A stretch of DNA of 63,164 nucleotides, counting the filler, from Octopus bimaculoides (Eukaryota): the NCBI RefSeq assembly GCF_001194135.2. It is 9 parts of 6 records of this genome, joined end to end, with 100 filler letters (N's around TTAATTAATTAA, not from the genome) between each part and the next. Parts side by side here need not be neighbours in the genome. Positions count along the whole stretch, not along the records: positions 1 to 7,620 come from NC_069002.1; positions 7,721 to 11,471 come from NC_068981.1; positions 11,572 to 16,313 come from NC_068982.1; positions 16,414 to 22,095 come from NC_069001.1; positions 22,196 to 39,168 come from NC_068982.1; 4 more parts are not named here. One strand, given 5' to 3'. This document shows, piece after piece, positions 67-22,510 of the stretch. The translations under genes and the position numbers were made by a program. Within the stretch, counting starts at the first letter, position 1; every line of letters starts with the position of its first letter. The notes beneath the pieces are model-generated. The model made no database searches and had not been told where the DNA came from. It saw nothing but the letters and a program-made list of their open reading frames with translations.

Positions 67-103
67 TCTTTCTGTTGAAGAGCGTAGCTCGAAACGTTAA
101 AGA
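67..103 (+). ncRNA. Minimal type I hammerhead-ribozyme-like motif (core variant CUGUUGA) in a Penelope-type repeat
   Basis: TCTTT-CTGTTGA-A-GAGC(GTA)GCTC-GAA-ACGT-T-AAAGA. Stem I TCTTT/AAAGA is perfect, stem II has 4 bp, and the palindromic ACGT replaces stem III. A6 of the core is U. Confidence 0.6.
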
Positions 104-713
104 CTTTCCGTATTCCCGAGCGTCATACCAATACATCCTTTTGTTGTTTACACCACCTGTCCTCGTCTGCTGTTTTTTTCGTACATTCTCCCATATATAT
201 GTGTGTGCGTGTTTGCGTGTGTGTATACGTACGTACATACATACATATATATATATATACATGGCAAGCTTGTGCACTGTTTCTGGCCACAAAATCCTGG
301 TCCATTGGAATGAATAGGCGGAAGAGAGGAAATAATGTTGAATGCCTCTACCATGAATCGAAACTGCATTGTCTGAAGTCGCATCTGTAACTTTAAGACG
401 ATTACCATATAGCGCTAATACTAACAAAATTTCTTACCAAATGATAAATGGTTCACAAGAATCTCAAAATTTTACTTAATTTGACGCAAAACTGCGTTGA
501 CCTCGTCACAGCATCTATCATAATTTCAAACTATCTTCAAAGTTAAGATGTATTTAATGGTTATCTGCGTTACAGAATAGAATTGATTTCCACATCGTAA
601 TGTAATATAAAGTCAGAGAGAAAGAAGATGTAAGTATACAGGAGCCATATTTATAAAGTAAAAGTTTATAATTGAGTTTATACAATGACAAGATTATATT
701 AGCGAAATGTCTA

Positions 714-870
714 AAGACGGCAGAATCGCTGCAATGACAGAAAAAAAATGCTTGTATGTATTTTTTCCGACATGTTACGTTCTCAGTTCAAATTCCATGG
801 TTGTTAACTTTGTCGATAAAATAACTACTCTTCGAATAACGGAGTCGATATAATTGAACGATTACAGACC
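714..870 (+). mobile_element. Diverged tRNA-derived SINE (family A)
   Basis: GGCAGAATCG A-box-like and GTTCAAATTCC B-box, followed by the GTCGATAAAATAA family motif. Confidence 0.6.
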
Positions 871-1310
871 CAAGCCATCACTAGAACCAAAAGCCTGTAA
901 AAATCTTCCGGAAGTTTATCATTTGAGTATACATGTACATGTCTAGACATTCATACGAATACATATATAAAACGAAAAATACAAATCTGCACATGCACTG
1001 ACTCGAAATACTGCACATATACATACATACATGCACAAATACACTGTTGATGTTGAAATTCCAATAAACGATCCTCGAATCTAGGTTAGAAACCGGCTCT
1101 TTTTCTACTTGCAAGAAATTTTGAAATTAAACTGAATAATGACTACATACATACATACATACATATATGCATGCATATTACTATTTAGTGGTACAGTGAA
1201 CATCTGCAAGATATCCCAAAGGTAACTCCATCTGAGATTCTTGAAGACATTTTATGCACACACTTGGTGGTAAGCATCAACATGGACACATTTGTAAAAA
1301 TCAACGCTGC

Positions 1311-1367
1311 ACACACACACACACACACACACACACACACACACACACACACACACACACACACACA
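1311..1367. repeat. (CA)n microsatellite
   Basis: Perfect CA run. Confidence 0.95.
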
Positions 1368-1580
1368 CTCATACAAGCAACCAAGCACTAAAGAGACATG
1401 TTCACAAAGTGCATAAATGCAGATGCATTTACCATCATACATGCTCAAACTAAAACATCAACCACAGATTTGCAAACCCCGGGATCAGTTTTAATCCAAG
1501 AAGCCTTGTCGCTCTTTTAGGGACTCGCTGAAAACCATTAAGAAGAATTTCAATAAATCTCAAATCAAAACATAAACATA

Positions 1581-2430
1581 TTAGGTGATCCCACAAATAA
1601 TGCGGGGTATTTATACTTTAAAAAAGTATAAAGTTTGCTTATACTTATAAGCAAAGTTCTATTTTAATCTAAAATATACTCTCCTTCATTTTCTACAACG
1701 TTCCTTCATTTTCTACAACGTTCCTCCATCTATCTGGTAGACTTGCAAAGCCTCTCTTCTAAAATTCACTTGTTCATGATGAACAATACTCCTCCAGCAC
1801 TGTTCTGATCTCGTCTACAGGATTCATATTTTTTCCGTCCAAATGATTTTGAAGACTGCGGAATAAATGATAATCAGATGGGGCAATGTTCGGCAAATAT
1901 GATGGGTGGGGCATCGTTTCCCATTCAAACTGCTCCAGCGTTTAGAATGTCATACCTGCTGTATGTGGCCGAGCATTATCCTGACGGAAGAACAGCTTTC
2001 ATTTTGAAACCAAAGATCGTCGTTATTCTTCTAAGCGCTGACTTGAATGACTGTTTGAATGCTCAAATCCACGCTTCTCTGCTATTTCCTCAACAGTTAC
2101 GATGGTTTGCAATACGTCCTCGTCGCGCTCTCAGTTTTTCTGGAACATCAATTTAGACTGGCTTACGCTTATTGTCCGATCACCATATACTGCATTAATA
2201 TTCTTCGCGCTTTCCGTTGCGTAGTTGCTTTTATTGAACGCATAAAGCAAAATATGCTGAATATGCTTCTTTGCCACTTTCATTAAAGCTTTGAGAAAAT
2301 AACTGTTAAAATCCAGCTACACTCTTCAAAATCTGCACTAAGAATAAGGACAAGGTAAAATTACTTTTATAGCACTTAGACTTTTAGTCCAAGCAATTGA
2401 AAAAACAATATTATTTATGAGATGACCTAA
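1581..2430 (-). mobile_element. Internally deleted mariner transposon
   Basis: TIRs TTAGGTGATCCCACAAATAAT / rc TTAGGTCATCTCATAAATAAT with TA on both flanks. Minus-strand remnants read MKVAKKHIQHILLYAFNK...NINAVYGDRTIS and FRQDNARPHTA...PHPSY...APSDYHLFRSLQNHL...LPDRW, with stops and frameshifts. Includes a 20-bp tandem duplication at 1682-1721. Confidence 0.9.
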
Positions 2431-2716
2431 TACATACATACATATATATATAGGTTAAAATATATATATTTTAACCTTCCGCATATTGTATATGCTGCCG
2501 TCCCAGTTTTTTCACGTTTCTTGTCTTATTCAATGTTTTTAGTTCGTAAAGGAAGTGTGATTTGTGACTGAGGAATATGTTTTAGGTATTTTGCAACATA
2601 TGAAATTATCAGTAGCGCTTAAAGACATGTATTGTGTCCTTTAAGTAAATAATAATTATCTCTCACCAGATGGAGTACATTTTTCTTGAATTTTCTATCA
2701 CAGAATAGTACATTGT

Positions 2717-21310: not shown

Positions 21311-21458
21311 GGGGGGAGAAGTTTACCCATGTTTGTTTTAGTTGCCATCATTGACAGCAGCGCTTGACTGGCATCTTTAAATTATCGACCCCGGAAGGAT
21401 GAAAAGTTAAGATGACCTCGACAGAACTTGAACTCAAAATGTGAAGAGCCGGAATAAT
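21311..21458 (-). mobile_element. Family A SINE fragment
   Basis: TTATCGACCCCGGAAGGATGAAAAG...GAACTTGAACTCA. Confidence 0.7.
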
Positions 21459-21674
21459 TTTTAGGGCAGTGGGTTTCGTCGGTACCAATGACCGTCGTGC
21501 TTGACTAGCACTTCATTTGAATTGACACCTTCACACTCACACTCGCACTTACACTCACATTCGCACTGACACATATTCATATTTTTACTCATATTCGCAA
21601 TCACACTCACACTCATATTCGCACTCGCACTCACACACACACATTTGCACTCAGACAATATCATATAAAATACA

Positions 21675-21998
21675 CACTCCGTCGGTTACGACATGGGTTC
21701 CAGTTGATCGGATCAACGAAACTACCTGCTCGTGAAATTAACGTGCAAGTGGCTGAGTACTCCACAGACACATATGTACCCTTAACGTAGTTCTCGGGGG
21801 AGATTCAGCGTGACACAGAATATGACAAAGCTGGACCGTTTGAATTACAGGTACAACTCAGTTTTGCCAGCAGACAGCACTAGAGCAGCGTGAAATAAAG
21901 TGCCTTGCTTAAGGACATAACGTGTCGCCGGGAATTGAACTCACGATCGTGAGCCGAATGCCCTAACGATTATGCCACGTGACTATGTCACGCGCCTT
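21675..21998 (-). mobile_element. tRNA-derived SINE (family C-type head, tail shared with 42125-42488)
   Basis: Head GTGAGTTCAATTCCCGG and TGTCCTTAAGCAAGGCACTT domain. Tail CCCCGAGAACTACGTTAAGGGTACA...CACGAGCAGG...GATCAACTGGAACC. Confidence 0.8.
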
Positions 21999-22005
21999 CA
22001 ATATA

Positions 22006-22095
22006 TTGGTTTCAAATTTTTGTCACAAGGCCAGCAATTTCGGAGTGGGGGGGAGGGTAAGTCAATTACATCAACTCCAGTACTCAACCGGTACT
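22006..22095 (-). mobile_element. Family A SINE 3' part
   Basis: GGTTTCAAATTTTTGTCACAAGGCCAGCAATTTCGG...; cut by a gap. Confidence 0.75.
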
Positions 22096-22194
22096 NNNNN
22101 NNNNNNNNNNNNNNNNNNNNNNNNNNNNNNNNNNNNNNNTTAATTAATTAANNNNNNNNNNNNNNNNNNNNNNNNNNNNNNNNNNNNNNNNNNN

Positions 22195-22510
22195 NTGAGA
22201 TTGGCCCGGAGGGATCTTTTTTTAAAGTCGAAACGCTCGACCAACGCCTTACAGTCATCCACGAACAAGTCTAGGCTACTGAATTGGCCTGGAGGCGGCG
22301 TCCAGTTGGATGGGCGGCGTCCCAGATCCGAGAAGTAGTTGGGACGCTGTGTTGACGTATGGAAGAACGCGCACAGTTTGATGCGGCGCATGAACTGGCT
22401 GACATCAGTGCGAGTCCCGAATTTGTCACAGTGGGGCGTGAGAGGCGTGAAGCGGAGGCCCCTACTAAGGAGTGAACGCTCAGCGGCGAACAGGGGGAGA
22501 TTGGGTGGTA
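22195..22510 (-). mobile_element. Penelope-like element ORF N-terminal fragment (pre-RT region)
   Basis: NLPLFAAERSLLSRGLRFTPLTP...DVSQFMRRIKLCAFF...SNWTPPPGQFSSLDLFVDDC matches the PLE motif ExxLLSKGLxFxP...FxRRxxLxxFF...WxPP...LDxF. Runs into a gap. Confidence 0.75.

Follow-up and report, generated by a model that had tools for sequence, protein, structure and literature searches.

Candidate hammerhead ribozymes in three unrelated repeat families of Octopus bimaculoides, probable 3' remnants of Penelope-like elements

Introduction

According to Cervera and de la Pena (2014, PMC4209133), minimal hammerhead ribozymes (min-HHR) sit in the pseudo-LTRs (pLTRs) of metazoan Penelope-like elements (PLEs), and truncated PLEs show mostly solo motifs together with close pairs on opposite strands. 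A hammerhead was also published for a Hydra element of O. bimaculoides, Hydra-1_oBim (Craig et al. 2021, PMC8557442, File S2), and almost every Hydra family is listed there with (TA)n as its target (PMC8557442). For the Poseidon element PAc of Anolis, the hammerhead is dispensable for insertion in vitro, and the tail of PLEs has been attributed to RT starting at two internal sites (Frangieh et al. 2024, PMC11167929).

Non-LTR retrozymes consist of tandem units with canonical ribozymes and produce abundant circular RNA; they are present in a mollusc, and the minimal and Hydra-type motifs are set apart from their hammerheads (Cervera and de la Pena 2020, PMC7229834). Retrozymes derive from pLTRs according to Li et al. 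(2026, bioRxiv 10.64898/2026.07.22.740005), and other non-autonomous PLE derivatives are known from that preprint, from MRC1 and from SINE-like elements of Schistosoma. We found no mention of ribozymes in the searched text of the octopus repeat papers that report PLEs.

As a kind, hammerhead-bearing PLE sequences are thus already known, with PLE hammerheads described in 2014, the Hydra-clade hammerhead of O. bimaculoides in 2021 and retrozymes as PLE derivatives in 2020 and 2026. What is added here is scale and a test bed. We analysed 63,164 nt of DNA from Octopus bimaculoides (GCF_001194135.2), made of nine joined parts of six records and called the window below, in which an initial annotation had proposed three families of hammerhead-bearing repeats.

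Results

Detection of the hammerhead motifs

We searched the window with a descriptor of the type I hammerhead, that is the core, the G10.1-C11.1 pair, a self-complementary helix III and a helix I of at least 3 bp. Four sites were obtained: 72-98 on the plus strand (F1), 7497-7547 on the plus and 7461-7411 on the minus strand (F2), and 13485-13520 on the plus strand (F3). None of 300 local dinucleotide shuffles reached four descriptor sites (mean 0.04, maximum 1); one strict descriptor match arises in 7 of the 300. Minimum-free-energy folding gave the hammerhead fold in none of the F1, F2 or F3 copies. Rfam, applied to the whole window and to the three motif stretches, returned no hammerhead match; apart from a single tRNA-like match, its output consisted of microRNA look-alikes driven by microsatellites. 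The proposal of three hammerheads is upheld by the number of descriptor sites but not by folding or by Rfam. That the three families are unrelated in sequence was confirmed: they have nothing in common outside the core, where pairwise scores were equalled in 251, 32 and 307 of 500 shuffles.

The energy of the helix III self-duplex was -1.7 kcal/mol for F1 and F3, and -9.7 and -5.1 kcal/mol for the two arms of F2. No tandem array in the window overlaps the F1, F2 or F3 motif. The patterns of the three families gave 0 loci in metagenome, prokaryote genome and viral collections, as did a PLE alignment run against viral contigs; such DNA is not expected in these collections. The features are collected in Table 1.

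Table 1. Features of the three families and of the PLE reading frame in the window
Feature	Position	Strand	Description
F1 host segment	1..192	+	U-rich leader, hammerhead and ~90-base 3' part up to a TA/TG tract; presumed extent
F1 minimal type I hammerhead	67..103	+	predicted cut after 98
F2 inverted arm	7382..7470	-	the other F2 hammerhead, with core at 7461 and predicted cut after 7411
F2 forward arm	7488..7620	+	Hydra-type hammerhead, core 7497, predicted cut after 7547; longer 3' part, meets gap
(ATA)n tract, constant 5' flank of F3	13340..13433	+	loose ends in 4/4 runs
F3 copy	13434..13584	+	~50-base head, minimal hammerhead, 3' part
F3 tail-only inverted duplication	17527..17637	.	without ribozyme; inverted duplicate 17527-17616
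Neptune/Nematis-type PLE ORF piece	22197..22523	-	GxKF/Y region, which lies upstream of RT; between (TA)n tract and gap
(ATA)n tract and F3 head fragment	43188..43282	+	stops before ribozyme

Structure of the three motifs

In F1, helix I (67-71/99-103, 5 bp) is followed by the core (72-78), one extra base, a helix II of 4 bp and a palindromic helix III of 4 bases. Core position 6 (base 75) is mutated to U, so that the CUGANGA/GAAA core with a UH cut site is matched only with one mismatch. Under a core-open constraint, energy calculation predicts that F1 forms the dimer helix III. The 5' end of its host segment may lie beyond the window, within which no second F1 copy was found.

The F3 motif has helix I at 13480-13484/13521-13525, the core at 13485, a helix II of 6 bp and a palindromic helix III, with a predicted cut after 13520; the CUGANGA and GAAA core and the UH cut site are present. 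Like F1, it has the extra base after A9, the G10.1-C11.1 pair and the palindromic 15.2-16.2. Helix I of the window copy is broken, and the family majority letters at 13483 and 13523 restore its pairing; the pairing letters of helix I are carried by 95-99.7% of contig depth. This damaged copy gave no dimer helix III under the core-open constraint.

Helix III of F2 is 9 bases long and near-palindromic (4+1+4), while its helix II is irregular, with a G-C pair, an internal loop and then a long stem, and a competing hairpin exists. The two hammerheads form an inverted pair at 7382-7576, and truncation has left each arm only 10-25 bases upstream of the core. Some 27 bases beyond its predicted cut the inverted arm gives way to (TA)n (7361-7382); on the evidence of this one locus F2 has its ribozyme close to the 3' end and a (TA)n target. 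Within helices I and III the arms differ at two sites, and pairing is kept at both (G-U for G-C). Pairing-neutral differences of this kind would also result from C-to-T decay.

Judged from sequence, F1 and F3 belong with the minimal hammerheads (Neptune/Poseidon/Cercyon) and F2 with those of the Hydra clade. Each motif had been described as folding into a type I hammerhead. F1 and F3 follow the consensus build, with a core U in F1 and a broken helix I in the F3 copy, and helix II of F2 is irregular. Inverted duplications had been proposed for two families: F2 carries a ribozyme in both arms, the only family of the window to do so, whereas the F3 duplicate (17527-17616) has none.

Copies of F3 in the window and in public reads

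The two head-bearing F3 copies of the window have the same start point and unrelated DNA upstream. We saw no tRNA-like head upstream of either, one of them being cut by a gap. In the inverted duplication both arms start immediately 3' of the cut, at the equivalents of 13524-13525. The forward arm, which has the optional ~35-base tail, adjoins a tRNA-headed SINE on the minus strand. Word-indexed protein searches, a weak test, gave no longer protein relative of two F3 reading frames.

In public reads, F3 contigs numbered 11,182 and 21,225 in two runs. Depth summed over the F3 core was ~1.3 and 1.7 x 10^5 times single-contig depth, a ratio that should not be taken for a true copy number; neither X18 nor X20 is recorded as a DNA run. 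We estimate that F3 is a dispersed family of the order of 100,000 copies, in agreement with the high copy number expected by the initial annotation. The 5' flank is a constant (ATA)n in all four runs. The 3' ends are staggered with heterogeneous flanks (agreement 0.40-0.45), and a tail of ~35 bases is optional among copies, most of which include the ribozyme core. The loose ends extend over 30 letters, which are microsatellite throughout and show no head and no 3' UTR of a parent element. Breakpoints concentrate just 3' of the predicted cut site, in 8 of the 15 joints listed.

We also looked at F3 in RNA. Here 93-95% of the reads continue into unlike sequence, and this read-through is seen from both strands. 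No pile-up of molecule ends or starts was found in two RNA runs, of each of which ~6% was read. Back-going (head-to-tail) joints come from one contig run and have single-locus depth (26-537 against ~5 million; 7 of 12 rows listed); none was in RNA among the 15 of 48 joints listed, standard RNA-seq and de Bruijn contigs being methods that under-report small circles and tandem arrays. A search of indexed runs listed no RNA run with F3, which speaks neither for nor against its transcription. Since head-to-tail joints are rare and molecule ends do not pile up, and the RNA is mostly read-through, the circular or multimeric retrozyme RNA that had been suggested is not supported for F3, nor are tandem head-to-tail copies.

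Letters that damage the F3 core are commoner in RNA than in contigs (22-24% against 3-4% at G12). A purging of intact cores from RNA was considered and rejected, because non-core sites rise alike: between X21 and X18, position 13466 shows 35% against 11%, and position 13471 shows 23% against <1%. The raised variant letters are explained by a few abundant transcripts or by contig bias. Of the F3 variants, 40 of 120 rows were covered, each position by itself.

A PLE reading frame in the window

The PLE ORF fragment that had been proposed is present. Over 99 aa it is 42% identical to positions 202-300 of a protein of 924 aa, which carries DKG, RT, a CX2-5CxxC linker and, at its C-terminal end, GIY-YIG; the G-L-R-F of the piece is aligned with invariant columns (GxKF/Y motif region). 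It has 330 relatives at E<=0.001. Ten relatives were scanned at E<=0.01, with GIY-YIG in 4, RT in 4 and both in 2; the CX2-5CxxC linker together with a GIY-like motif is present in 6 of 15 long relatives. By this similarity, the piece is PLE-derived and of Neptune/Nematis type. The window copy, a pre-RT piece only, ends in the gap, and no RT or GIY-YIG was found elsewhere in the window (Pfam on 127 of 200 filtered frames). A word-indexed search, weak for this purpose, gave 0 longer proteins matching the piece among 140 candidates, and the best ESM Atlas score (0.78) was uninformative.

We considered the ORF piece as evidence linking the ribozymes to PLEs and rejected it: no ribozyme lies beside it, the F3 hammerhead is 8.6 kb away, and the octopus repeat literature puts the share of PLEs in the O. 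vulgaris genome at 6.83%.

Discussion

Origin of the three families

We consider it probable that F1, F2 and F3 are the 3' ends (pseudo-LTR pieces) of three PLE families, scattered by early-terminated RT and probably unable to self-cut alone. The staggered 3' ends of F3 and their optional extension fit the PLE tail (PMC11167929). Mobilisation by PLE RT, as had been put forward, is likely given this tail, the types of hammerhead and the flanks of AT-rich microsatellite; the nearby ORF piece adds nothing to it.

In such a mechanism, the PLE protein would nick AT-rich microsatellite DNA, and reverse transcription would be primed from either of two internal RNA sites, giving copies with or without the tail. 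The PLE RT would copy merely 130-190 bases, and fold-back or template switch would sometimes produce inverted pairs. Since most F3 copies contain the ribozyme core, the usual template would be uncut RNA. The parent transcript would be tandem, so that its palindromic helix III could join one ribozyme to another for cleavage, probably aided by the PLE protein. A lone copy would have no partner for dimer cleavage, the two F2 arms, lying back to back, would close up as a single long hairpin, and in the window F1 and F3 have damage in the core or helix I.

Some observations run against an origin as PLE remnants. The 5' boundary of F3 is a constant (ATA)n with unrelated DNA upstream in the two head-bearing window copies, and this boundary together with the very high copy number is more readily reconciled with a short unit of its own than with truncation at random. 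Both F1 and F2 are known from the window only, and the irregular helix II of F2 has a competing fold.

F3, and perhaps F1 and F2, could instead be a non-autonomous SINE-like element with its own promoter and a PLE-derived, ribozyme-bearing 3' end, linear monomers of which would be copied by PLE RT; the promoter would possibly be a head of Pol III/tRNA type that precedes the (ATA)n, and the hammerhead-bearing SINE-like elements of Schistosoma would be its analogue. In octopus genomes, a tRNA-like head presumably lies upstream of the F3 (ATA)n tract. The (ATA)n flank found in four of four runs, the order of 10^5 copies and the common start of the two head-bearing copies all argue for such an element, as does the existence of non-autonomous PLE derivatives (MRC1, Li 2026 and Schistosoma). 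We nevertheless hold it to be rather unlikely, because no head is visible in the 30 loose-end letters, neither head-bearing window copy has a tRNA-like head (one being cut by the gap), and F3 RNA is read-through from both strands with no pile of starts. That F3 is a SINE-like PLE parasite of ~100,000 monomeric copies, whose breakpoints 0-9 bases 3' of the cut record cleavage in vivo, is a doubtful proposition in our view; the pile-up of breakpoints would then arise where RT reaches the end left by cleavage of the RNA and falls off, or where it skips over the ribozyme fold.

An improbable origin is that of non-LTR retrozymes, in which tandem ribozyme repeats would give multimers, then monomers and circles reinserted by PLE RT. 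The palindromic helix III would suit dimer cleavage by its calculated energies, a few F3 back-going joints are present in one contig run, and both the mollusc occurrence of retrozymes (PMC7229834) and their pLTR origin (Li 2026) are compatible with it. Against this stand a window with no tandem array over any motif, F3 back-going joints of depth at most 537 in ~5 million with none in RNA among those listed, RNA reads that nearly all enter unlike sequence, and motifs of minimal or Hydra type, unlike retrozyme hammerheads (PMC7229834). Finally, one or more of the motifs, most likely F2 or F1, might be chance hairpins or long-dead look-alikes in non-PLE repeats. The failure of minimum-free-energy folding and of Rfam to return a hammerhead, the F1 core mutation, the irregular helix II of F2 and the single strict matches in shuffles agree with this, but four sites together exceed all 300 shuffles, helix III of F2 is that of published Hydra motifs, and the differences between the F2 arms keep pairing, though C-to-T decay does likewise. 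We judge it very improbable.

PLE remnants remain our preferred explanation. With F3 copies of the order of 10^5, it should be possible to ask statistically whether the hammerheads of PLEs cut in vivo and influence insertions. A family of this size would also place ribozyme cores of both orientations, apparently A-to-I edited, in many transcripts of the host. If the F3 breakpoints are indeed a fossil record of cleavage, this genome would be a direct statistical test of PLE hammerhead cutting in cells, and also of A-to-I editing disarming hammerheads inside host transcripts.

Comparison with known systems

F1 and F3 agree feature by feature with the published min-HHR consensus, and mollusc examples have a like build (PMC4209133): the core, the extra base after A9, the G10.1-C11.1 pair, the two-base palindrome 15.2-16.2 and a short helix I are shared, as is the U-rich leader in the case of F1. 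The families of the window also resemble the PLE motifs of that paper in being mostly solo copies with close opposite-strand pairs. The order of 10^5 F3 copies is far above the 2,000-9,000 descriptor matches per genome given there, which were counted differently. The F1 and F3 sequence families were not found in the accessible part of its supplement.

F2 shares the 9-base length of helix III with 20 of 26 Hydra-clade rows (PMC8557442, File S2), and its helix III letters are identical in 2 of the 26, Hydra-2_aMil and Penelope-16_HM. An 8-letter core is common to F2 and Hydra-1_oBim; helices I and II are unlike, so F2 is a different family. Its helix II is longer and irregular in comparison with Hydra-clade hammerheads, and no Hydra ORF was seen in the window. 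As in the Hydra clade, the ribozyme is close to the 3' end with a (TA)n flank, and the inverted truncated copy resembles Penelope-13_HM (PMC8557442).

With non-LTR retrozymes, F1-F3 share a non-coding nature, a type I hammerhead, likely movement by PLE RT and a probable pLTR derivation. They differ from them in their single or inverted copies and minimal or Hydra-type motifs, with no sign of arrays or circles in the window and runs. PAc is autonomous, its ORF beginning inside the ribozyme (PMC11167929), whereas the F3 frames gave no longer relative, which is weak evidence. In other respects F3 is close to PAc (Frangieh et al. 2024, PMC11167929), with which it shares an optional tail (30-40 bases), targets rich in AT, a cut site at which RNA-seq shows no ends, and uncut RNA as the probable main template.

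Hammerhead sites in the window

We searched the 63 kb with a type I hammerhead descriptor and observed four sites, against a mean of 0.04 and a maximum of 1 in 300 local dinucleotide shuffles; one strict descriptor site alone is less striking (7/300 shuffles). The three families concerned, F1, F2 and F3, have only the core sequence in common, in agreement with the three sequence-unrelated hammerhead families of the initial annotation. Minimum-free-energy folding gave the hammerhead fold in none of them and an Rfam search returned no hammerhead match in the window, which is expected for minimal hammerhead motifs.

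F1 has a U at core position 6 and no second copy within the window. F2 is a single back-to-back pair adjoining a (TA)n tract; its helix II is irregular and it is therefore the least certain ribozyme of the three. For F3, the window holds a single copy that includes the ribozyme, and its helix I is damaged. Inverted duplications had been claimed for two families: F2 and F3 are indeed inverted, but only in F2 is the ribozyme itself duplicated.

A fourth hammerhead-like site (2565-2611, +) has an intact core, a 7-bp helix II and a 3-bp helix I, but its helix III lacks one base of the minimal palindrome; it may represent a further family in decayed form.

Repeat-derived features of the window
Feature	Position	Strand	Basis
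F1 hammerhead	core 72, predicted cut after 98	+	descriptor
F2 hammerhead, forward	core 7497, predicted cut after 7547	+	descriptor
F2 hammerhead, inverted	core 7461, predicted cut after 7411	-	descriptor
F3 hammerhead	core 13485, predicted cut after 13520	+	descriptor
F3 head fragment	43245-43282		
F3 inverted tail, without ribozyme	17527-17616		
PLE-derived open frame	22197-22523	-	protein relatives
Mariner transposase fragments	9404-10347, 23185-23520, 2134-2316	- (all)	Pfam HTH_48, Transposase_1
Frames without Pfam match	3087-4124 (-), 38766-39167 (+), 13790-14107 (-), 30556-31029 (-)		

F3 in public reads

F3 was surveyed in four runs with 13412-13800 as query at 80% likeness; two are RNA runs and two are contig runs, taken as DNA by size and depth, not recorded as such. 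The contig runs gave 11,182 and 21,225 matching records, with a summed depth over the F3 core of 1.40 and 4.77 million and a median single-contig depth of 10.5 and 28.7 (8 records listed per run). The ratio, 1.3 and 1.7 x 10^5, is an order-of-magnitude figure, summed depth not being copy number, and at that level it bears out the high copy number proposed for F3. The organism codes of the two contig runs differ and therefore F3 spans species. At 13483 and 13523, the majority letters, with 95-99.7% of contig depth, restore pairing over all 5 bp of helix I, which has decayed in the window copy. All four runs show (ATA)n as the 5' flank; the 3' ends are staggered (13572-13581) and the contig flanks beyond them unrelated (agreement 0.40-0.45). 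A fraction of copies carries a further ~35 bases at the 3' end, also present at 17610-17637, which match the tail of a Penelope-like element (PLE); this tail has been traced to two internal reverse transcriptase (RT) start sites, and AT-rich cut sites are preferred (Frangieh et al. 2024, PMC11167929).

Upstream of F3, between a gap and the (ATA)n, lies a hairpin-like segment of 14-16 bases (13326-13341), the only copy in the window, which may mark the border of an inverted 5' portion of F3. A single reading frame is open across the entire F3 copy (13451-13582, +); a protein search returned no longer relative.

The RNA runs, with about 6% of each run covered, gave 7,065 and 5,683 matching reads. 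First mates came equally from either strand, 93-95% of reads continue into unlike sequence and neither starts nor ends pile up at any position in the two runs: F3 RNA is read-through of host transcripts. Between 13438 and 13581, we counted 26 and 28 A>G sites in the RNA runs versus 5 and 6 in the contig runs, and 16 and 16 T>C sites versus 6 and 8 (Fisher P 3e-4, contig run X18 versus RNA run X21). This would fit A-to-I editing of F3 on both strands; such editing of repeats is strong in octopus (Porath 2017).

Breakpoints near the predicted cut and a model for F3

Among 15 listed F3 joints of 48 in total, a non-random sample, 8 fall at 13520-13529, mostly removing the ribozyme (binomial P from about 2e-4 to 1e-5, with spans taken as 80-120 bases), and the remaining 7 group at 13548-13559; every listed joint is at single-locus depth. 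Both arms of the inverted tail in the window begin at the equivalents of 13524-13525, and in all four runs depth rises 1.21-1.33-fold from bin 13516-13528 to bin 13529-13541. We take as a lead that F3 breakpoints concentrate directly 3' of the predicted cut. A 6-base palindrome and helix I coincide with the site, however, and could give rise to such breakpoints through fold-back or skipping, with no cleavage involved; CpG decay in the ribozyme, lowering contig depth, can give the depth step.

The anatomy, dispersal, flanks, tail and inversions were observed. We propose that AT-rich microsatellites would be the sites at which a PLE RT/endonuclease inserts short copies of the 3' end, using a template that would be mostly uncut RNA, given an F3 core depth of about three fifths of the 3'-part peak; inversions would arise by fold-back or template switching. 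Cleavage would need two ribozymes paired via helix III, probably with PLE protein, and the lone or back-to-back window copies are probably inert. For PAc, cutting occurs only with protein and is not needed for insertion (Frangieh et al. 2024, PMC11167929). F3 might be what is left of an autonomous PLE, or else a SINE-like unit in its own right; the fixed 5' boundary and the copy number favour the latter, which is unproved because no promoter head is visible in the data examined.

The PLE-derived frame and other repeats

Among 1.84 billion proteins, the PLE-derived frame has 330 relatives at E<=0.001; it aligns with residues 202-300 of a protein of 924 aa (99 aa, 42% identity). GIY-YIG was found in 4 of 10 relatives scanned and RT in 4 (E<=0.01), both in 2. 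A CX2-5CxxC linker, the mark of Neptune and Nematis PLEs (Craig et al. 2021, PMC8557442), accompanies a GIY-like motif in 6 of 15 relatives of at least 430 aa. The piece is the pre-RT region. The initial annotation was right on its PLE origin, but an association with the ribozymes is not supported: the piece is flanked by (TA)n and a gap, no ribozyme lies beside it, and the 15 long relatives have no further match within the window. In O. vulgaris, 190 PLE families make up 6.83% of the genome (Bonar 2026, supplement), so that a PLE piece is expected in 63 kb and is no evidence of a link to F1-F3.

Directly after the gap following F2, a 142-base tandem repeat (7723-8408; 2.5 copies and related pieces) has no hammerhead core. 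The frames without Pfam match are presumably LINE-like fragments (Tx1-, RTE-, CR1-like). The window is full of dispersed SINE-like families; Pol III-like boxes at 17737 (-) and 31477 (-) mark two tRNA-like SINE heads, and a tRNA-like sequence (61166-61236, +) is over the Rfam gathering score and uncalled by ARAGORN. A weak helicase match (26209-26385, -; E 7.5e-4, under the curated cut-off) is perhaps a Helitron remnant. Several N gaps (7666-7677, 22140-22152 and others) hold a short mid-gap TTAA-repeat linker, probably an assembly artefact.

Comparison with known hammerhead elements

In non-LTR retrozymes, units bearing canonical hammerheads stand in tandem and yield circular RNA (Cervera 2020, PMC7229834); these elements derive from PLE pseudo-LTRs (Li 2026, bioRxiv 10.64898/2026.07.22.740005). 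The proposed retrozyme-like tandem or circular RNA is not supported: unlike retrozymes, F1-F3 showed no tandem array, F1 and F2 being assessed in the window only. Back-going F3 joints (7 of 12 rows listed) have a depth of 26-537 versus about 5 million, with none in RNA among 15 of 48 joints listed; contigs collapse arrays and RNA libraries miss small circles.

Our literature search yielded nothing on these families or on retrozymes in octopus, and word searches found ribozymes unmentioned in the main text and supplement of Bonar 2026 and in Marino 2022. A text search of the Craig et al. supplement for short family-specific motifs of F1, F2 and F3 gave no match, although line breaks may conceal some.

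In the catalogue of Hydra-clade PLE hammerheads (Craig et al. 2021, PMC8557442), 20 of 26 rows resemble F2 in a helix III strand of 9 bases and two have its exact helix III. One entry, Hydra-1_oBim from Octopus bimaculoides, has a (TA)n target, a ribozyme close to its 3' end and the 8-letter core of F2; helices I and II are unlike, and therefore F2 is a separate family. The min-HHR of metazoan PLEs has an extra base after A9, G10.1-C11.1 and a palindromic 15.2-16.2; copies are mostly solo, with some close opposite-strand pairs, and activity is low, as dimers only (Cervera and de la Pena 2014, PMC4209133). F1 and F3 both have its defining features and the same build as the Lottia examples. F1-F3 are of a kind already known, one octopus example included.
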